Assembly (NCBI GenBank): GCA_014804245.1
Contig: JAAVAE010000014.1
Span: 25,117 to 89,116 of the forward strand
DNA length: 64,000 bases
DNA from: Lachnospiraceae bacterium
GTDB taxonomy: Bacteria > Bacillota > Clostridia > Lachnospirales > Lachnospiraceae
Direction of reading: 5' to 3'
Shown: positions 9,911-49,886 of the stretch, one piece after another
How positions within the stretch are numbered: position 1 is the stretch's first letter
Layout of the letters: each line of letters starts with the position of its first letter
The notes under the pieces: generated by a model
Database searches by the model: none
What the model was told of the DNA's origin: nothing
Seen by the model: only the letters and a program-made list of their open reading frames with translations
Translations under genes and position numbers: made by a program

Positions 9911-10707
9911 GATGCGCCTCCGTTTATTCCTTTAAGTTCATCCAGCATGGCTTTCTTGTTGGGGGAGCGCATAAGGGTCTCGCCAATTAACACAGCATTC
10001 ACGCGGGATTGTTCCAAAGATACGATATCCTCCCGGCAGCGGATGCCGCTTTCTGCAACGAATAAAATGGATTCCGGCACCAGTGAGCGGAGACGGGCGC
10101 TGTTGTTTATATCTACGGAAAAGTTTTTAAGGTTCCGGTTGTTTACACCTATAATGCGGGCGCCTGCTTTAATGGCGGAAGCAATTTCCGCTTCATCATG
10201 TGCTTCCACAAGGGCTGAGAGTCCAAGCCGGTCACAGATTTCAATATAGTGCTTTAAGGTATCGGTGGAAAGCAGGGAACAAATCAACAGGACGGCGCTT
10301 GCGCCTAACAATTTTGCCTCGTAAATCATGTATTCGTCCACCGTAAAATCCTTGCGGATGCAGGGAATGGAAACAGTCCCTGCGATTTCTTTCAGATATT
10401 CATCCTTCCCTAAAAACCATTTTGGCTCTGTCAGCACGGAGATGCAGGATGCCCCTGCTTCTTCATACTCTCTGGCTATGGAAAGATAGGGAAAATCCTC
10501 TGCAATCAATCCCTTGGAAGGAGATGCCTTTTTGCATTCGCAGATAAAGCTGATACCTTCAGAAGATAACGCTTTTTCAAAGGGAAATTCCGTCTGGCAG
10601 TCCATGGAAAGGGCAAGTTCTTTTATTTCTGCAAGAGGATGGACGGCATTTGCTTCCTCCACCCGTTTTTTGGCATAATCTGCTATGGTTTCTAATATGG
10701 TTGCCAT
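9907..10707 (-). CDS. trpC: Indole-3-glycerol phosphate synthase
   Basis: ECKKASPSKG, ISVLTE, RKDF, IGVNNRNL, AESGI, LIGE. Confidence 0.97.
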   Translation of the reverse strand: MATILETIADYAKKRVEEANAVHPLAEIKELALSMDCQTEFPFEKALSSEGISFICECKKASPSKGLIAEDFPYLSIAREYEEAGASCISVLTEPKWFLGKDEYLKEIAGTVSIPCIRKDFTVDEYMIYEAKLLGASAVLLICSLLSTDTLKHYIEICDRLGLSALVEAHDEAEIASAIKAGARIIGVNNRNLKNFSVDINNSARLRSLVPESILFVAESGIRCREDIVSLEQSRVNAVLIGETLMRSPNKKAMLDELKGINGGAS

Positions 10708-34979: not shown

Positions 34980-35519
34980 TTAATTAAAATATCTCTTAAG
35001 CAGGCCTTCAAATGCCTTGCCATGTCTAGCTTCGTCACGAGCCATCTCATGAACGGTGTCATGGATTGCGTCAAGGTTTGCAGCTTTTGCGCGCTTAGCG
35101 AGGTCGAATTTACCAGCTGTAGCGCCGTTTTCAGCTTCTACTCTCATTTCAAGGTTCTTCTTGGTGGAGTCGGTTACAACTTCGCCTAACAGTTCAGCAA
35201 ATTTAGCAGCATGTTCAGCTTCTTCATAAGCAGCTTTTTCCCAATATAAACCGATTTCAGGATAGCCTTCTCTGTGAGCAACTCTTGCCATTGCAAGGTA
35301 CATACCAACTTCTGTACATTCGCCGTTGAAATTTGCTCTTAAATCTTCAAGAATGTCTTCGCTTACGCCTTTAGCAACGCCTACCACATGCTCAGCAGCC
35401 CAAACTTTCTCTTCACCTTGGGCGGTGAATTTCTCTGCGGGTGCGTTACAAACGGGGCATTTCTCAGGTGCCGCATCTCCTTCATAAACATAGCCACATA
35501 CCTGACATACAAATTTCAT
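34980..35519 (-). CDS. Reverse rubrerythrin (NADH peroxidase)
   Basis: N-terminal CQVC/CPVC rubredoxin domain followed by a ferritin-like domain with EEAEH and DEARH. Confidence 0.95.
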
Positions 35520-35544
35520 AATACTTATCTCCTTTTCTTATATA

Positions 35545-35931
35545 TTAATTTTTGGATAAACAATTGTTACAGCGGCCATAAAAGTAGGTCACTTGTCCTT
35601 CAATTTCACCTTTAAAGTTCTTCTGTGCTGCCTTTGATAGATGCTCTGTCATTGGTATATTCAGATCCATTACACATCCGCATTCGGAACATACGAAATG
35701 ATAATGAGGTGAAGTATCATAATCAAAGTGATCTACGCTATCGCCTACCCGGATTCTTGCTATTTCACCGATATCGGCAAGCAGGGTCAGATTCCGGTAT
35801 ACAGTTCCCAGGCTGATATTCGGAAAGGACTCGCGAACATTCCTGTAGACAACATCTGCAGTAGGATGATCTTTTCTGGTGGCCAGAAATGCTTTAATAG
35901 AATCTCGCTGTTTACTGTGCTTCAGATTCAT
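35545..35931 (-). CDS. perR: Fur-family regulator, PerR-like
   Basis: HPTAD, SLGTVYRNL, HYHFVCSECG, CNNC; first gene of a peroxide-defence operon. Confidence 0.82.
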   Translation of the reverse strand: MNLKHSKQRDSIKAFLATRKDHPTADVVYRNVRESFPNISLGTVYRNLTLLADIGEIARIRVGDSVDHFDYDTSPHYHFVCSECGCVMDLNIPMTEHLSKAAQKNFKGEIEGQVTYFYGRCNNCLSKN

Positions 35932-40269: not shown

Positions 40270-40316
40270 ACAGTCCTATTCAGCTAAGCGGCAGCATCAT
40301 AGCTGAATGAGGCTGT
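40270..40316. terminator. Hairpin between convergent genes
   Basis: ACAGTCCTATTCAGCTA...TAGCTGAATGAGGCTGT imperfect inverted repeat. Confidence 0.55.
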
Positions 40317-41083
40317 TAATGGTATCGCTCGGAAAGTCCGCTGCGTTTAAAGGCAGACTCAAAGAAACGCTCCCGATATTTTTTGGGCGTCATACCAAAG
40401 CTCTTTTTAAAAACTTGAATAAAGTGGCTTTGGGAATTGAAGGCCAGTATGGAAGCGATGTCAGCGGTCGGTGTGTCGGAGTATAGGAGCATATTTTTGG
40501 CGGCCTGCATCCGGCGGTCTGTAATGTACTGGGAGATGGTCATTTCAGTTTCTTTTTTAAACAATCCAGACAGGTAATTGGGGTTTAGGTTGACTTTGGC
40601 AGCAAGGGTTTCTATAGACAGCTTTTCATGTAGATGATAGTAAATGTAATCCATGCACGTCAGAATGGGCTTTGAATAAAGGGGACGTTTATGAATTTCA
40701 GACATTTGTGATGTGAAAAAGCTGATCATATCTTCGTATAATTGAATAATACTGTCAACATCCTGACAAGAATCCACCCGTTGAATATAGAGGTCGCTGG
40801 CGGTGTATGCATCTTCCTCATCCATACCGCCTTCAATGGAAAAACGCGTTGTCAGGGTGATGGAAGCTATAAAAAGATATTTGAAATTTTTTAGCGGAGT
40901 ATCTGATAAATGACCGCTCAATTCTGACAGAAATAAGTTCTTGCTTACTGCAACGGCATCCATATTTCCATCCCTGATCATATTGTACATGTGTAGCTCT
41001 TCATCATATTTGTGATGGCGGGTGCCATTCTCGCGCCGTAAAAACTGCTGGTAATATAAGGCTTTATTATTTACATAGGGCAT
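40316..41083 (-). CDS. AraC-family regulator, divergent from the ROK-VOC-GH1-ABC operon
   Basis: LNPNYLSGLFKKE, FNSQSHFIQVFKKSFGMTPKKYR; AGGAG RBS before ATG 41083. Confidence 0.92.
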   Translation of the reverse strand: MPYVNNKALYYQQFLRRENGTRHHKYDEELHMYNMIRDGNMDAVAVSKNLFLSELSGHLSDTPLKNFKYLFIASITLTTRFSIEGGMDEEDAYTASDLYIQRVDSCQDVDSIIQLYEDMISFFTSQMSEIHKRPLYSKPILTCMDYIYYHLHEKLSIETLAAKVNLNPNYLSGLFKKETEMTISQYITDRRMQAAKNMLLYSDTPTADIASILAFNSQSHFIQVFKKSFGMTPKKYRERFFESAFKRSGLSERYH

Positions 41084-41285
41084 AATGCTATCTCCTGATT
41101 TCAATTGTATGCATCAAAGGCAGATTTTTGTAAATATGCACAAAAAAATAGAAATATATTTGGTATAATTATCGAAATTAATATATATATGAAAATTGTA
41201 ACATAAATATGAGAAAAATGATATAACAAAGCGCAAATATTTGTTACCTTTAGTTCACAGACAAAACGAGAAGAGGAATAGAGAT

Positions 41286-42278
41286 ATGAAATGTTTGGCT
41301 TTGGATTTCGGCGGCAGCTCCGTCAAATATGCTCTTGTGGATCAGGAGGCTCATTTGGAACATTCAGCTAAGGTTCCGGCACCGCTTAATTCTGTAGACG
41401 AGTTTGTTGAGACGGTAACCAATTTGTATGAATGCTTTCGGAATGAAATCGAAGGCATAGCCATTAGTATGCCGGGTTATATTTCATCTACAAAAGGGAT
41501 TTTGTTTGATTCGGGAGCGTATAAAGCACTTTACGGGTTTAATATCTACCAGCTTTTGGGGGAAAAGTGTCCGGTGCCTATAACGATGGAAAACGATGGA
41601 AAGTGTGCTGCTTTGGCAGAAGCATGGAAAGGTGCCTTGGCAAAATGCAGGGATGGAGCAGTGATTGTATTGGGTTCCGGAATTGCAGGAGGAATCATTA
41701 AAGATGGTAAGATTCACAGCGGACGGGATTTTTCCGCAGGAGAGTTGTCTTATCTGATTACGGATCCAACTCAAAAGACGCCTTTGTGCTGTGCATATAT
41801 GTCGGCGGCAATGCATGGACTGTGTTATAGGGTCTGCAAAGCAAAAAATCTGGATCTCTCTGTCCAGGACTCTGCATCAATTCTTACATGGCTTGATGGT
41901 CTCATTCAAATGCCTTATGCAGATCCCAAAGGCAGTTTGAAAAAAATTAAATCTGACGGCGTTCAGATCTTCAAGTGGCTTTCAGAGGGTGATGCTGATG
42001 TTACATATATCTACCAGAATTTTATCAGGTCGCTGGCCGTGGTTGTCCACAATGTACAAATTTGCTATGCACCGGAAAAAATTGCAATCGGCGGCGGTCT
42101 TAGCTTGGAAAATCGTATTTTTGAGGATTTGAATCAGGAACTTTGCTCGTACTATCATGCCATGGAAGTGGGAAAAGAATTATATGCAGATGTAGTCAAA
42201 TGCCATTATCTGAGCGAATGCAACCTGATTGGCGCTATGTATAACTATTTGCTCCACCGTCATAATAATGACATCTGA
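41286..42278 (+). CDS. ROK-family kinase (beta-glucoside kinase-like)
   Basis: ALDFGGSSVK, ISMPG, ENDGKCAALAE, LGSGIAGG, AGELSY. No HTH and no CxCGxxGC zinc motif. Confidence 0.85.
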   Translation: MKCLALDFGGSSVKYALVDQEAHLEHSAKVPAPLNSVDEFVETVTNLYECFRNEIEGIAISMPGYISSTKGILFDSGAYKALYGFNIYQLLGEKCPVPITMENDGKCAALAEAWKGALAKCRDGAVIVLGSGIAGGIIKDGKIHSGRDFSAGELSYLITDPTQKTPLCCAYMSAAMHGLCYRVCKAKNLDLSVQDSASILTWLDGLIQMPYADPKGSLKKIKSDGVQIFKWLSEGDADVTYIYQNFIRSLAVVVHNVQICYAPEKIAIGGGLSLENRIFEDLNQELCSYYHAMEVGKELYADVVKCHYLSECNLIGAMYNYLLHRHNNDI

Positions 42279-42314: not shown

Positions 42315-42878
42315 ATGAAAATGGAACAAGTCAAAACAACTTACCCTAACCCTAATCGGCCACCAAAGAAATTTACGGCCAAAAGTCTTCACGGACGTAC
42401 CAGACTTTATGTGACTACGTATAAGGATCTGCGTCGTTTCCAGAACTTCTATATCAATGTGTTCGGATGGGACATGATTGAAATGCCAGTGGCGGCCAGC
42501 GGTGTTCCGGCCGGCGACGAGCATCCTTCACTGCTGATGGCAACAGGACCTTCACAGTATGATTATGAAGGAGTAACACCGGGACATATGAACATGTTTG
42601 TTCATTGGGCGCCGGGAGAGATTGAGAAACAGGGACCGTTCACGGAAATTCATATGGATCGGCCTCTGGAAGAAACGATTCAGAAAATTATCGACCATGG
42701 CGGTAAGCTGATTCTTGACAAGAGCAAATCAGCACTTGCAAAACCTTTGGACGACAGTAAGCAAAGCTGGGAAATTCATGCAGTAGTAGAAGATCCCGCT
42801 GGTAATTATCTGTACCTGTGGAAATGCCCGTCTTCAAGAACCTGGGATGAGCTGGAAACCGAGTACGACGTTATATAA
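42315..42878 (+). CDS. VOC (glyoxalase/bleomycin-resistance fold) protein A
   Basis: FYINVFGW, LEETIQKIIDHGGK and AVVEDPAGN are VOC hallmarks. Confidence 0.72.
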   Translation: MKMEQVKTTYPNPNRPPKKFTAKSLHGRTRLYVTTYKDLRRFQNFYINVFGWDMIEMPVAASGVPAGDEHPSLLMATGPSQYDYEGVTPGHMNMFVHWAPGEIEKQGPFTEIHMDRPLEETIQKIIDHGGKLILDKSKSALAKPLDDSKQSWEIHAVVEDPAGNYLYLWKCPSSRTWDELETEYDVI

Positions 42879-42890
42879 GGAGGAGAAGAG

Positions 42891-43574
42891 ATGAAAAAAA
42901 TATATACATGTTTTGCCTGCGGCTTCCCCATTGCGTTTGAAGAGACAGAAGTCCCTGCACATTGCCCCGGATGCGGAGCACCGCGTTCACAATTTTTAGA
43001 GGAGCCTTGGTGCGGCAGCATTGAAAAAAGACGTATCCACGTTGATCCGCCCGAGGTTGATCCCAACAGAGATCCTTTTGATATTTCTTTCCATCCGGCA
43101 AAGGATTTTGCGCCTCTTAAGGGACATGGACGGACAAGGCAATGGGTTATGGGATACAATGAAGGACAGGCGCAGGAAATGAGATCTTTTTATGAAGACA
43201 TTTTTGGATGGGATATCATTGAAACAGAAAATTCCGATCCCGAAAATCCTACCATGTATTGCGCTACAGGACCAGGAACAGAGGACTGGGAACCAAGAGT
43301 ATGTTCTTTCGGATATGGTTTCCTGACACCTTATGCTAAAGAGGGAGAAGTCAAACCGACAGACTGCTTTGTAGTTGAAGTGAAGGATATTGAGGATACA
43401 TTGAAAAAGACAGTAGAATTCGGAGGCAAGGTGCTGCGTGAGCGCTTTTCTTTCGAAGGTCAGGATTATGCGGTGATAGAAGACAGCGAAGGCAATCAGC
43501 TGTATATCTGGGAGCAAAAAGATAAGGAGCCTGATTATTGCACAAATCCGGTGACCAGAACAGGAGCGCAGTAG
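42891..43574 (+). CDS. Rubredoxin-like domain-VOC fusion protein B
   Basis: N-terminal CFACG...P..CPGCGAPRSQF, then FYEDIFGW, VKDIEDTLKKTVEFGGK, AVIEDSEGN. AGGAGG RBS. Confidence 0.75.
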   Translation: MKKIYTCFACGFPIAFEETEVPAHCPGCGAPRSQFLEEPWCGSIEKRRIHVDPPEVDPNRDPFDISFHPAKDFAPLKGHGRTRQWVMGYNEGQAQEMRSFYEDIFGWDIIETENSDPENPTMYCATGPGTEDWEPRVCSFGYGFLTPYAKEGEVKPTDCFVVEVKDIEDTLKKTVEFGGKVLRERFSFEGQDYAVIEDSEGNQLYIWEQKDKEPDYCTNPVTRTGAQ

Positions 43575-45074
<1,500 letters not shown>

Positions 45075-45089
45075 GAAAATGGTGAAAAT

Positions 45090-46595
45090 ATGGAAAAAAA
45101 GGTTGTTTTAAAAGTAGAGGGTTTGAATAAATCATTTGGTTCTACACGGGCTGTTGTGGATATGCATCTGGAATTGTATGCGGGTGAGATTCGGGGACTG
45201 ATTGGAGAGAACGGCAGCGGAAAATCAACCGTGACGACTATGATTGCTGGAAGTCAAAGACCGGATAGCGGAACGATGATGATGGATGGGAAAGTTCATG
45301 CGCCGAAGAGCATGCTGGAGGGACGTGCGGCAGGTGTATGTATGCTTCTTCAGGAAAAAGGAACAATCAATCATCTGACAGTTTCCGAAAATATTTATCT
45401 GGGCGAAGAAGATAAATTCAGCCGTTATGGCATTGTTAACCGGCGTAAGATGGACAAAGAAGCAAAGAAGGTGTTGGAGAGTATTGACCTTGGAGATGTA
45501 AATCCTGCTCATTTGATTGATGAACTCAGTTTTGAAGATCGAAAGCTAGTGGAAGCAGGAATGGCGATGAAAGCTGATCCCCGGATTTTGATTGTGGATG
45601 AGACGACCACAGCGCTGTCCCAGAAAGGGCGTGAGGTGATTTATCGTATTATGAATCAAATGAAAGAGGAGGGAAAAACTGTAATCTTCATTTCCCACGA
45701 CCTGGATGAACTTAAAGAGATTTGCGACAATGTAACAGTTATGCGCGACGGTGCATATGTTACTACTTTATATGGAGACGAGATTACCATTGACAGTATG
45801 CGTCAGAATATGATTGGGCGTGAATTGTCCGAAGGTTATTATCGAAGCGATTATGATGATAATTATGATCATGAGACAGTGATGCTGGATGTGAGCCATG
45901 TTACTCTCGGAAATACCCTTAAAGATGTTTCCCTTCAAGTGCATAAAGGAGAGATTCTTGGAATCGGCGGTCTGACTGATTGCGGTATGCATGATCTGTG
46001 CAAGGTAGTATTTGGCTTGAGACAGCCAGATACTGGAGAAGTATGTCTTCCGCAGAAGGGTGTGAGTATCAAAAATTCCACTCAGGCAGCAGAAAACGGA
46101 ATGGGATATGTCCCTAAAGACCGTGAACTGGAAGGACTGATGCTGGCAGCGAGCATTCGGGATAATATCAATCTGATGGCAATGGATAAGATAAAAAAAG
46201 GTTTCCTGATAACACCTGGGGCGACCAGGAAGCTGGCAAGCACACAGGTGGAGGCTTTAAGTATCAAAATTGGTGGTATGGAGTTACCTGTATCCAGCTT
46301 AAGCGGCGGCAACAAACAAAAGGTTGCAATTGCCAAATGCATGGCAAACGATGTCGAAATTCTTATTATGGATTGTCCTACCAGAGGAATTGATATTGGA
46401 GTCAAAGCGGCAATTTACCGCTTACTGGAAAAGTTTAAAGAGGAAGGCCGTGCGATACTGATGGTTTCAGAGGAACTTCCTGAGCTGCTGGGAATGGCAG
46501 ATAATCTGGTTATTATGAAGGATGGCGAAGTGACTGCGCGCATTAAGCGAAGTGTTGATGTGACAGAGCATGATGTCATTATCAAAATGATTTAA
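45090..46595 (+). CDS. CUT2 (RbsA/MglA-like) sugar ABC ATPase
   Basis: Tandem NBDs: GENGSGKST, IVDETT, LSGGNKQK, DCPTRGIDIG. Confidence 0.93.
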   Translation: MEKKVVLKVEGLNKSFGSTRAVVDMHLELYAGEIRGLIGENGSGKSTVTTMIAGSQRPDSGTMMMDGKVHAPKSMLEGRAAGVCMLLQEKGTINHLTVSENIYLGEEDKFSRYGIVNRRKMDKEAKKVLESIDLGDVNPAHLIDELSFEDRKLVEAGMAMKADPRILIVDETTTALSQKGREVIYRIMNQMKEEGKTVIFISHDLDELKEICDNVTVMRDGAYVTTLYGDEITIDSMRQNMIGRELSEGYYRSDYDDNYDHETVMLDVSHVTLGNTLKDVSLQVHKGEILGIGGLTDCGMHDLCKVVFGLRQPDTGEVCLPQKGVSIKNSTQAAENGMGYVPKDRELEGLMLAASIRDNINLMAMDKIKKGFLITPGATRKLASTQVEALSIKIGGMELPVSSLSGGNKQKVAIAKCMANDVEILIMDCPTRGIDIGVKAAIYRLLEKFKEEGRAILMVSEELPELLGMADNLVIMKDGEVTARIKRSVDVTEHDVIIKMI

Positions 46596-46608
46596 GGAGG
46601 TGTTTTTT

Positions 46609-47565
46609 GTGAAAGAAACAACAAAACATAAATTCATCACAAAGGACAGGATACGGGCTTATCTTCCGGTATTTGCTTTGCTGTTTGTTGTAGCGCTTTT
46701 TGCCATTTTGACTCATGGAACAACGATGAAAATTAATAATCTGAAACAAATCATGTTGCAATCATGTACTTATATTGTAGCGGGGCTTGGCATTATCTTT
46801 ACAATGTCCTTGGGTAATATGGATATGTCTCTGGATGGTATTGTCTGCTTATCAGCATGTCTGAGCCTGCTGGCAACAGAAGTTACCGGCAGCTGGATGA
46901 TGTTTCCAGTCATCTTCCTAATTGCAATTGCATGTGAAATGGCAATCGGAGGCATTAACATTTTGCTGGGCATTAACAGTGTGATTGCTTCCTTCGCAGT
47001 TTCTTTCTTTGGAAAAGGAGTGGCGGGATTTATAATCGGCAACCGAACAAAGGCTTTGAGCCTGCCAGGGGAATTTAGTTTTCTCTACAACAGGACGGGC
47101 TTCTACATCATAACAATTATGGCAATTTTCGTGTTGACGGTGATTTTCCATTATACAAAGCTGGGGAAACGTGCGATGGCAATTGGTTCAAATCCAAGTG
47201 CGGCAAAGGCGGCAGGAATCAATGTGACAAAATATAAATTGTTGTCCTATTTGGTAGCAGGTATCATGATGGGGCTTGCGACACTTCTGATTGTCTTGCG
47301 TTCCGGCTCCACCAGTGCAACGACGGGTTCCGGTTTTCATGTATCGGTACTTCTGATGATGGTAATCGGGGGAGCGGCCCTTACCGGAGGCACCAAAGAA
47401 AAAATTTATAGTGTAGTTGTGGGTGTTCTCATATATTTGTGCCTAGAGAATGGTCTTACTGTTTTGGGGACAAGCCCGGAGGTAATAGGTCTGATTGAGG
47501 GGATTATTTTCCTGGCATCTGTAACGCTGACCTTTGACCGTGATGGCGTTCCGTATATTTTATAA
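46609..47565 (+). CDS. CUT2 ABC permease 1 (RbsC-like)
   Basis: GNMDMS, YTKLGKRAMAIGSNPSAAKAAGIN, VIGGAALTGG. Confidence 0.9.
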   Translation: MKETTKHKFITKDRIRAYLPVFALLFVVALFAILTHGTTMKINNLKQIMLQSCTYIVAGLGIIFTMSLGNMDMSLDGIVCLSACLSLLATEVTGSWMMFPVIFLIAIACEMAIGGINILLGINSVIASFAVSFFGKGVAGFIIGNRTKALSLPGEFSFLYNRTGFYIITIMAIFVLTVIFHYTKLGKRAMAIGSNPSAAKAAGINVTKYKLLSYLVAGIMMGLATLLIVLRSGSTSATTGSGFHVSVLLMMVIGGAALTGGTKEKIYSVVVGVLIYLCLENGLTVLGTSPEVIGLIEGIIFLASVTLTFDRDGVPYIL

Positions 47566-47640: not shown

Positions 47641-48804
47641 ATGAAAAAGAAATGGATGAAACTTGTGGCTCTTTCGATGTCCCTTATGATGGTGCTTTTA
47701 ACGGCATGTGGATCTGGACAGAATGCCGGAGAAAGTACAGCTGGGAATACCTCTGCCGAAAGCAGTGAGGCAGCAGGAGCAGAAACAGGCAGTGAAGATA
47801 CTGCTGATGCTAATCTTACAGTGGGAGTCATCATTTGGTCTACCGATGATGGGCTTGGCGCTGATTCAAAGAAGGCATTGGATGCGGTAGCAGATGATCT
47901 TGGTATTAACCTGATTTATAGAACAGGAAGCTATGATGCTGAAAATCAGACCACTGATCTTGAAAATCTGATAGCAGCCGGAGCAGACGGCATCATGTGT
48001 TGTGTTATAGTGGATACATCAACAGACGAGCTGCTTAAGGTTTGTGAGGAAGCTGATGTTGATTATCAGGTATTCTTCCGCAACATTATAGACGAAGAAG
48101 CTTATAACTATTGTATGTCAAGCGATCACTTTGCAGGATATATCTGTGAGGATGAAGGATCTGCCGGTGTTGATATGGTTGATGAGCTGATTGCACAGGG
48201 ATGTACTACCTTTGGGCTTATCAACCGTGAGGCAGGCAACGGTGTTATTGACCGTCGTCAGCAAGGTACAATGGAATATTTAGATGAAAAAGGATTGACT
48301 TACTATGTTTCTACTAACACCAGTACAGCAACCGCAACAGAAATGGTAGATGCAACAGATCAGCTTCTTGCAGCTTATCCTGATATTGACGGATTGATTC
48401 TTTCTTCTGGTTCCAATGGTGCTATTGATGCAATTGTTACAGACCTTGAGGGTACAGATATTAAGCTTACATCATTTGACACACCGGCTGATATTGAAGG
48501 GTCTTTCAATGCTGGAAATCTGTGTATGTTGACAACTGGAGCACAGATCGACCCTGTTTATGCACTGATCAATCTGTACTGCAAAATGACGGATAATCCG
48601 AAATCCGAAACACCTACTGAATATGGTTCCAATTATATTTATATGAAGTCTGCGGAAGATGCTAAAACCTATGAACAGTATTTTGGAGAGTTCAACAGCT
48701 ACACAGCAGATGAGATAAAGAGTATGGTAGATATGGATTTAGCTTCCTTCGAAAAAGAAATGGCAAATTATAGTCTGGAAATGGTTGTAGACAAAATGGA
48801 ATAA
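47641..48804 (+). CDS. CUT2 ABC solute-binding lipoprotein (RbsB-like fold)
   Basis: Lipobox LLTAC, acidic linker, LENLIAAGADGI, YPDIDG, SFD. Confidence 0.88.
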   Translation: MKKKWMKLVALSMSLMMVLLTACGSGQNAGESTAGNTSAESSEAAGAETGSEDTADANLTVGVIIWSTDDGLGADSKKALDAVADDLGINLIYRTGSYDAENQTTDLENLIAAGADGIMCCVIVDTSTDELLKVCEEADVDYQVFFRNIIDEEAYNYCMSSDHFAGYICEDEGSAGVDMVDELIAQGCTTFGLINREAGNGVIDRRQQGTMEYLDEKGLTYYVSTNTSTATATEMVDATDQLLAAYPDIDGLILSSGSNGAIDAIVTDLEGTDIKLTSFDTPADIEGSFNAGNLCMLTTGAQIDPVYALINLYCKMTDNPKSETPTEYGSNYIYMKSAEDAKTYEQYFGEFNSYTADEIKSMVDMDLASFEKEMANYSLEMVVDKME

Positions 48805-48908: not shown

Positions 48909-49886
48909 ATGACGAAAAGAATTAGCTATCAGATAAAAAATTATATGATTGCAATAGCGATTCCGTTGGTTTTATATGTGATTCTGTTGATTGCAGCGCC
49001 AAAGGCAATGGGCGGAACACAAATTTTTGACATTCTACGTCAGGCAATGTTGCCTTCTATTCTGGCATGGGGTGTTGCATTTGCCTGCAAGCTTGGCTTA
49101 TGGCATTTTGCAGCAGGGGCAAATGTGATTTCCGGTATTATCATTGGAGCAGGTATTGGCAATCGTTTGGGGGGAAGCCCGGTTGTGATAGCGATCAGTA
49201 TCATTGTCACCAGCACGCTAATCGGTCTTGCATGCGGGATGATTTACATATGGATTAAAGTTCCATCCATCATTGCAACGGTAGGGTGCATGTTAGTTCT
49301 GGAAAGTATATCCGCTCTTGCCTGGGGAGGAGGAGGAATTACAGTGAGCAAGGACTATGCTATTTTTAACAGTGTAGTGGTTGTTGTCATTTGTACGTTA
49401 ATCAGTTTTGTGATTGCCTATTTCCTTTATGCAAGGACGAAATATGGATTTAATTTGAAGGCAGTTTCCAGCAACATCAATGTTGCAGAGCAGCAGGGAA
49501 TTGATGTTAGAAAGGTGAAAGTGATTTCATTTGTCTTAGTCGGATTTTTCAGTGGTATTTACGGTACATTGACTCTTGCACGATCCTTCAAACAAGTACC
49601 TGTCACAAATATGGGAAGCATGGATATGGTATTTAATGCAATTATGTGCTTCTTTGTGGCAGCAGCGATTGAAAAGCGCGTAAATCTGATGGTAGGGGTC
49701 TATATAGGTTCCCTGACGGTTCAGCTGATTAAGTTTGGAATTGTTGCGCTGGGGATTTCAGGGCAGTTCAATAATGCAGCAGTTGCAATCGCGCTTTTGA
49801 TTTTCTGTATGATCAGCAGTGAAAGCGAACCAATTATGAAGTTACGCGCAAAGCTGCGTCCTAAAAAAGACATAGCTGCAGAATAA
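48909..49886 (+). CDS. CUT2 ABC permease 2
   Basis: KVPSIIATVG, RTKYGFNLKAVSSNINVAEQQGID; multi-TM. Confidence 0.88.
   Translation: MTKRISYQIKNYMIAIAIPLVLYVILLIAAPKAMGGTQIFDILRQAMLPSILAWGVAFACKLGLWHFAAGANVISGIIIGAGIGNRLGGSPVVIAISIIVTSTLIGLACGMIYIWIKVPSIIATVGCMLVLESISALAWGGGGITVSKDYAIFNSVVVVVICTLISFVIAYFLYARTKYGFNLKAVSSNINVAEQQGIDVRKVKVISFVLVGFFSGIYGTLTLARSFKQVPVTNMGSMDMVFNAIMCFFVAAAIEKRVNLMVGVYIGSLTVQLIKFGIVALGISGQFNNAAVAIALLIFCMISSESEPIMKLRAKLRPKKDIAAE

Follow-up and report, generated by a model that had tools for sequence, protein, structure and literature searches.

Paired VOC-fold proteins without the canonical metal site, encoded in predicted beta-glucoside operons and proposed to act together on released aglycones

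Among described VOC proteins, glyoxalase I holds its metal through four ligands (His/Gln, Glu, His, Glu) on central strands, and extradiol dioxygenases and methylmalonyl-CoA epimerase conserve His/His/Glu-type metal ligands. The solved VOC proteins 2R6U and 3HDP, as well as the epimerases, adopt a back-to-back arrangement. MRD, Rv0577 and TnmS1 are non-catalytic binders or of unclear function, and KbpA and SgaA have regulatory or sensor roles. To our knowledge, the enzymes that handle aglycones after gut bacteria have removed the sugar are largely unknown. A published list places a Glyoxalase_4 isomerase family among gut polyphenol enzymes (PMC8824206), and SPG, which isomerises deoxynivalenol, supplies a VOC precedent on an aglycone-type molecule (PMC12566506). 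We take the Glyoxalase_4 isomerase to be dihydrodaidzein racemase. A further study describes MRD as a non-metalloprotein and DnrV as a VOC protein whose doxorubicin binding averts product inhibition (PMC12979805). With respect to glucoside breakdown, work on C. farciminis has proposed a route in which sinigrin is first phosphorylated and then hydrolysed, and employed BglK to prepare phospho-sinigrin (PMC8660893).

Here we describe a pair of adjacent genes, A and B, in a 64,000-nucleotide stretch of a Lachnospiraceae bacterium genome (the window). As the original prediction held, both open reading frames are present 12 nt apart on the forward strand, between the A stop at 42878 and the B start at 42891, and the gap contains the sequence GGAGGAG. 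The A frame opens at 42315, and its start is more likely the second ATG (42321-42878, +; 185 aa), as judged by ribosome-binding-site spacing and by an ESM Atlas entry that begins at residue 3; residue numbers in A nevertheless count from 42315 throughout. Protein B (42891-43574, +) comprises an N-terminal Cys4 knuckle, a conserved Pro/Arg/His-rich linker and a VOC domain at approximately residues 80-210, which exceeds the Pfam Glyoxalase cut-off (PF00903, 27.7 vs. 20.6 bits), whereas A of the window falls below it. Across the two families PF00903 is matched at E≤0.01 by 68/71 B and 36/71 A members, and a phmmer search of the PDB with A alone gave no match. The two proteins are indeed diverged paralogues, with 29% identity across 171 columns (E 1e-18) and family profiles that align at 99.9% probability (E 8e-36). 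The motifs proposed to be common to them are all present and in order, except that the spacing from F to HGRTR is five residues, not three. AlphaFold models of A and B (pLDDT 77.5 and 81.8, respectively) adopt VOC folds, with the two paired beta-alpha-beta-beta-beta modules evident in the model secondary structure of both, and Foldseek recovers 2R6U with E 4e-7 for A and 2e-9 for B. Further fold matches include Rv0577, AbxF, MRD and metal-dependent VOC enzymes.

The claim that the standard metal site is altered stands insofar as the four ligand positions are kept in neither family, with its register corrected by one residue. The H-F-E-I strand of 2R6U aligns to L31-Y32-V33-T34 of A and to Q84-W85-V86-M87 of B. 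The corresponding ligand positions of A (L31, F95, F109 and Y167) are all variable, with no conserved ligand in a 71-row family, and those of B are occupied by Q84 (Arg in 68/71), F144 (Phe/Tyr), C159 (variable) and Y205 (Tyr in 64/71). Because the canonical metal ligands are absent, A and B are neither glyoxalase I nor dioxygenases, and an identity as an ordinary enzyme of either kind is thereby ruled out. Of 171 A domains, at least 167 retain each of H26, R28, R30, E85, E111, W152, R175, W177 and E181 (E111 in 170; W152 in 168, with three gaps), followed by W169 in 153 and N93 in 149. By register, E111 lies two residues past the lost His of the second module, where B has Val, Ile, Met or Leu, and from its place in the alignment it would face the pocket; W152, in turn, aligns with the PWG Trp of 5UMP, a residue that B is without. 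Presumed pocket-face positions are more variable in A than in B (mean entropy 2.12 vs. 1.13 bits), a pattern that fits a variable specificity subunit (A) working with a constant partner (B). Tandem copies of A (25 A-A pairs) diverge more on the four central strands, at 39-43% of positions, than they do overall (23%); variability specific to one face was not seen in these copies, with both strand faces alike (0.39 vs. 0.43), and the pocket-face assignment is thus not confirmed.

To establish how regularly the two proteins are paired we compared 122 loci, of which 59 come from genomes, retrieved with the A alignment from the best 80 of its 84 matching stretches, and 63 are metagenome loci retrieved with the B alignment. 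Together they contain 147 A frames, 106 B frames and 38 B-A fusions; 13 A and 3 B frames within 300 nt of a locus end were set aside for the pairing counts. Every assessable A gene (134/134) is followed by another A or by B, and A lies directly upstream of B in 101/103 assessable cases, the two unpaired B genes (L057, L120) being B starts cut at contig ends, as is that of G035:C41. The gene runs are AB in 81 cases, AAB in 14 (two of which represent a frameshifted single A) and AAAB in 6. The fusions are spread over 18 loci, in 15 of which they neighbor one another in twos or threes, and all are ordered B-A, the reverse of the separate genes; nine homologues of about 390 aa are likewise B-A fusions. 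A single clade for 19 fused A halves is rejected (p-AU 1.1e-6, with at least three label changes, in a test made after the tree had been seen), and fission of fused genes, rather than repeated fusion, may be at work. It is important to note that clustering at 93% identity leaves 70 of the 118 complete units; a tree of A and a quick tree of B, each built on these 70 units and the window's pair, resolve the same main groups. Chance adjacency and recent local duplication are ruled out as explanations of the pairing by the 122 loci, the congruent trees and the fusions.

Homologue searches returned 117 proteins for A (from 129 candidates) and 104 for B (from 175), many of them 70-90% identical and almost none named, and a profile search of 1.84 billion representatives yielded 16 proteins at E≤1e-30 and 79 at E≤0.001, numbers that indicate a small family well separated from ordinary VOC proteins. 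Locus record titles are mostly of Lachnospiraceae, Oscillospiraceae and other Clostridia, together with one Actinomycetota bin. Full A+B units occur in 6/36 genomes of the same genus, which may overlap with the 122 loci and are not counted as independent, and in none of 24 genomes of other families or of 400 drawn across the phylum. One further same-genus genome (G018) has a decayed locus in which TetR, GH1, A and B fragments lie together (L134:6925-8045), and the module therefore seems to disappear as a whole. A, B or GH1 genes that are frameshifted or split are also found at L003:10001-10543, L005:9995-10840, L114, L026 and L036, through either assembly error or decay. In five loci (L022-L025 and L082) two B-A fusions of different clades stand back to back and divergently transcribed, with GH1 after one of them and a ROK/ABC operon converging. 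Two Clostridia-like loci (L047, L050) sit on contigs titled Akkermansia muciniphila and Bacteroidaceae, by mis-binning or transfer. A search of longer proteins for fusions to other domains gave, among 7993 candidates, only 8 matches (427-428 aa, with VOC domains), which is weak evidence against such fusions, and three proteins of 1031-2216 aa (P0247, P0254, P0262), each matching part of the A profile weakly 8-14 times, are possibly multi-VOC repeat proteins. Searches of the open-access literature found no description of the A/B pair.

The N-terminal domain of B (residues 1-36; 42891-42998, +) does resemble the rubredoxin domain of rubrerythrin, as had been suggested. Its C7-x2-C10-x14-C25-P-x-C28 motif is invariant, with C7, C10, C25, P26, C28 and Y5 in 71/71 B sequences and F12 in 66/71, and it combines the CxxC...CPxC pattern and the aromatic core of the rubredoxin-like family PF21349 (RUBY_RBDX). 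The window's B matches that model at E 1e-4 with 22.1 bits, below the gathering score of 26.5, and also has rubrerythrin and rubredoxin matches in the PDB. Family-wide, RUBY_RBDX matches 48/71 B members at E≤0.01, DUF7130 matches 49/71 and a Zn-ribbon model 16/71.

Gene order, B-A fusions and structure prediction all speak for A and B being partners, and the two very probably form a heterodimer. A complex of A, Zn and B was modeled with a score of 0.93, against 0.00 for the best control in a set without homodimers; the mark applied is reached by 116/157 solved and 2/215 mismatched pairs, counts that are only roughly valid here. At least 67% of contacts are common to the runs, and partner pLDDT is at least 86. 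The pass may nonetheless reflect VOC likeness as such, as similar VOC dimers (2R6U) have been solved. The top modeled contacts run from the first helix of A (F45, N48, V49) to the second module of B (K173, T174, F177, D198), and the modeled interface further includes knuckle residues 10-16, 20 and 22-29 of B and, in both chains, the ATGP...E loop. Within single chains of 2R6U, 3HDP and methylmalonyl-CoA epimerase, the models of A and B each align on the two modules, whereas B aligns on one module only of E. coli glyoxalase I. These whole-chain alignments, taken with the modeled contacts, suggest that the two subunits dimerize back to back, each with a pocket of its own. The proposal that active sites are built at the interface is accordingly revised: the pocket likely lies within each subunit, and what crosses the predicted interface is the conserved loops.

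The operon context links the pair to sugar genes, as originally proposed. Upstream lie a divergent AraC-family regulator (40316-41104, -; Pfam HTH_18, E 3e-24), replaced by TetR or MerR in many related loci, and a ROK kinase (41286-42278, +; PF00480, E 2e-30) that is likely a beta-glucoside kinase, BglK being the best of the 12 NCBIfam models matched at 117 bits, far under its cut-off of 550. Directly downstream is a GH1 6-phospho-beta-glucosidase (43662-45074, +), which carries the motifs NEI, ENG and S-x-x-T-G-E-x-x-K-R-Y and exceeds the NCBIfam thresholds (785 vs. 624 bits for PRK09589, and 706 vs. 686 bits). The last motif, which we take to be phosphate-binding and of phospho-type, is present in 68/68 full-length neighboring GH1s. 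The operon continues with a two-domain ABC ATPase of a monosaccharide-type importer (45090-46595, +; PF00005 twice), a first permease (46600-47565, +; PF02653), a substrate-binding lipoprotein (47641-48804, +; PF13407) remote from all solved ones (best PDB match YtfQ-type, E 2e-7), and a second permease (48909-49886, +; PF02653). A scan for promoters and terminators did not rise above shuffled sequence (18 vs. 24.4 and 10 vs. 6.6 ± 3.0, respectively). About 7 kb upstream of A/B is a rubrerythrin-like gene (34980-35519, -), which is not a recurring neighbor elsewhere; the region 34980-35931 (-) presumably encodes a Fur/PerR-like regulator and, beside it, a rubrerythrin-like protein whose N-terminal domain is a rubredoxin.

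Among the 122 loci, 46 have long flanks and are partly redundant; 45 of these contain a permease, 44 a binding protein, 39 GH1, 7 GH3 and 35 ROK, and GH1 or GH3 stands beside A/B in 44, the remaining two being L027 and L063. The genome of the window has 3 GH1 genes in 2.93 Mb, corresponding to about 2% per 20 kb by chance. Regulators and accessory genes vary (TetR 25, AraC 9, MerR 9, SDR 8, SnoaL 2); all labels come from profiles on the loci's own clusters, so that a few of the GH3, AraC and ABC labels denote unrelated neighbors. In single-unit loci, a threshold of 62% identity separates the GH1s into three groups, and one of 45% separates the binding proteins into five. Pairwise identities, which are not independent of each other, correlate at 0.69 for A with B (46 loci) and at 0.69 for binding protein with ATPase (30), and those of B correlate at 0.17 with GH1 (24 loci), 0.25 with the binding protein (33), 0.14 with the ATPase (35) and 0.52 with ROK (27), from which it follows that the A/B unit has exchanged its importer and hydrolase partners for different ones, yet stays with such genes. 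Individual loci show further arrangements: L027:9389-13495 has A-A-B followed by a GH2 whose best model is beta-glucuronidase LacZ4 (571 bits, below the cut-off of 950); L042:5496-9965 has SDR, GH3, a SnoaL_4 protein and MerR directly before A-B, with no ROK or GH1 in view; and L082:18780-19226, at a distance of about 8 kb from the fusions, encodes a C-glycoside deglycosidase beta subunit (PF19906, E 4e-34), which is not a general neighbor.

Within 28/122 loci the same operons carry a second pair of small paralogues, C and D (about 142 and 125 aa; hhalign 99.8%), exemplified by L076:9810-10238 and 10228-10620. They have no Pfam, NCBIfam or PDB match and are thus flagged here as a second family without any annotation. 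NIPSNAP/ABM look-alikes in ESM (0.90) provide a lead and suggest a dimeric alpha-beta barrel; for a split chalcone isomerase, another candidate identity, the PDB, Pfam and NCBIfam searches gave no match. C and D were not found in the window's own assembly, which is 60% complete, and the accessory SDR, SnoaL and C/D genes are all absent from the window's locus. Their presence in related loci suggests a pathway.

In light of these results, the gene clusters around A/B are predicted to take up plant-type sugar conjugates and cleave them, and the role of A/B is probably directed at the aglycone: where GH1 is replaced by GH3, or by GH2 as in L027, A/B are kept, which points away from the sugar. We tentatively favor, at somewhat below even likelihood, a reading in which A and B constitute a metal-free heterodimeric enzyme that converts the released aglycone, with the knuckle in a structural role. 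The ABC system would import an intact small beta-glucoside, as its family suggests; the ROK kinase would phosphorylate C6; and the GH1 enzyme, of clear family membership, would cleave the phospho-glucoside to glucose-6-phosphate and aglycone. The aglycone would then enter the aromatic pocket of A, where Glu111 is a likely acid/base for isomerization, elimination or hydrolysis, making the aglycone harmless or usable. B would likely be the constant partner, its Cys4 knuckle clamped onto A, and additional copies of A would likely widen the range of aglycones accepted.

The strongest competitor to catalysis, although unlikely, is a non-catalytic binder, a reading absent from the original prediction, in which A+B would keep a toxic or inhibitory aglycone bound or free GH1 from product inhibition, much as DnrV, MRD and TnmS do with their own ligands. 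The missing metal site and the fold matches to MRD (1KMZ), Rv0577 (3OXH) and TnmS1 (5UMQ) fit such a role, as do the variable pocket strands, which are equally compatible with ligand diversification, and the alignment of W152 with the PWG-motif Trp of 5UMP, to which we presume a stacking role. DnrV, whose binding of doxorubicin prevents product inhibition, fits this reading as well (PMC12979805). A stoichiometric sponge would, however, be poorly suited to catabolic flux, no exporter is conserved nearby, and the invariant Glu, obligate second subunit and metal knuckle exceed what known binders need. What tips the balance from sponge to enzyme is the invariant Glu together with the obligate partner, the presence of accessory genes of lyase and dehydrogenase type, and the flux to be expected of a catabolic route.

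The original prediction had also entertained a redox-active pair, and we judge it quite unlikely that the knuckle is an iron rubredoxin set beside the A pocket, passing single electrons to or from the aglycone, for instance as a quinone or radical intermediate. The rubrerythrin-type motif with conserved Tyr5, Phe12 and Phe/Tyr35, the excess of RUBY_RBDX over Zn-ribbon matches (48/71 vs. 16/71), the modeled contacts with A of residues around the Cys ligands and the anaerobic lifestyle of most named hosts are all consistent with this arrangement. Against it, DUF7130 matches as many B members (49/71) as RUBY_RBDX, sequence cannot separate Fe from Zn, and the 295 unlabelled frames within 7 kb include no recurring flavoprotein, ferredoxin or oxidoreductase, SDR being present in only 8/46 long loci. 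More generally, those frames contain no redox partner, exporter or sulfatase that is found repeatedly in unrelated loci, and the redox reading is weakened because a conserved redox partner gene is missing nearby. A bolder extension, that A+B represent a new VOC class in which the internal metal site has been traded for a docked iron rubredoxin, performing one-electron chemistry on plant-defence aglycones with a swappable A and constituting, with C/D, SDR and SnoaL, an undescribed anaerobic pathway for dietary-glucoside aglycones, is similarly doubtful.

It is improbable that A/B act on the sugar side, whether the target is the (phospho)glucoside prior to hydrolysis, a modified sugar or a glycolytic by-product such as methylglyoxal. 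Conserved basic residues of A (R15, K18, K19, R28, R30, R175) and B (R47, R48, R83, R84) could bind phosphate, and the correlation of 0.52 between B and the ROK kinase fits a link to the kinase step. Yet the glyoxalase I metal ligands are absent, the pair persists where GH3 or GH2 replaces kinase and GH1, the neighboring glycosidases are from ordinary families that call for no modified sugar, and a single sugar would hardly account for A pockets that are duplicated and variable. A role as sensor or regulatory accessory, in which A/B would bind the aglycone and modulate a regulator, kinase or transporter, is very improbable indeed, since the regulator switches among AraC, TetR and MerR and the transporter among at least five groups with A/B constant, despite a structural branch shared with Rv0577 (titled a kinase inhibitor homologue) and a weak KbpA match (E 0.07).

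Overall, the earlier interpretation is partly supported: the three outcomes that it had named as counting against it, namely homologues occurring singly or away from sugar genes, failure of a heterodimer to form and a close characterized homologue such as an ordinary glyoxalase I, did not materialize in the analysis. A/B is a real, conserved and undescribed module outside glyoxalase I, the dioxygenases and KbpA (NCBIfam NF053614, cut-off 250), to which B scores 12.8 bits and A has no match, and we regard it as a well-supported lead rather than the discovery of a function. Aglycone enzymes of gut bacteria determine host exposure. Importer, kinase, GH1 and two-subunit VOC protein form a compact, reconstitutable set that is found in cultured strains, among them Diplocloster hominis CSJ-3, D. 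modestus ASD4241 and Lachnospiraceae bacterium 28-4.

Compared to known systems, glyoxalase I, methylmalonyl-CoA epimerase and the extradiol dioxygenases have the VOC fold in common with A/B, whereas all four metal-ligand positions are lost in the latter. The top sequence and fold match for both proteins is the uncharacterized RHA04853 of Rhodococcus RHA1 (2R6U), at Z 9.9 and rmsd 3.1 over 126 aligned residues for the A model and Z 14.5 and rmsd 2.8 over 123 for the B model. It shares with A/B the elements GR, FY..FGW, TGP, GG and D..GN but differs as a single 148-aa protein without a knuckle that retains H-F-E-I, at 20-30% identity to A/B. 3HDP also matches both (Z 8.4 for A and 10.2 for B). 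The rubrerythrin-type rubredoxin domain and the B knuckle share the pattern CxxCG-aromatic ... P..CPxCG...F, the latter being distinguished by its 14-residue spacing and by fusion to a VOC domain rather than to a diiron bundle. Rv0577 (3OXH), MRD (1KMZ), TnmS1 (5UMQ) and AbxF, the last an enzyme by its PDB title and among the top fold matches, belong to the same fold branch at no more than 20% identity, and the B-A fusions, like Rv0577, contain two VOC domains. In contrast to A/B, neither these four nor DnrV are known from sugar catabolic operons, and we know of none that is an obligate two-gene heterodimer with a Cys4 knuckle; the obligate VOC heterodimer, the rubredoxin-like clamp, the reversed-order fusions and the variable, expanding subunit were likewise not found in our literature searches. 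Dihydrodaidzein racemase would be a VOC precedent on aglycone-type molecules, and cotton SPG differs in being metal-dependent and is a weak fold match (7VQ6, rmsd 15.7). At the level of the operon, the C. farciminis-type route and the A/B loci follow the same logic of kinase and 6-phospho-beta-glucosidase, with nothing in the A/B loci that marks glucosinolates as the substrate. Relative to PTS-type glucoside routes, the A/B operon has an ABC importer in place of the PTS and, in addition, a dedicated pair of VOC proteins.
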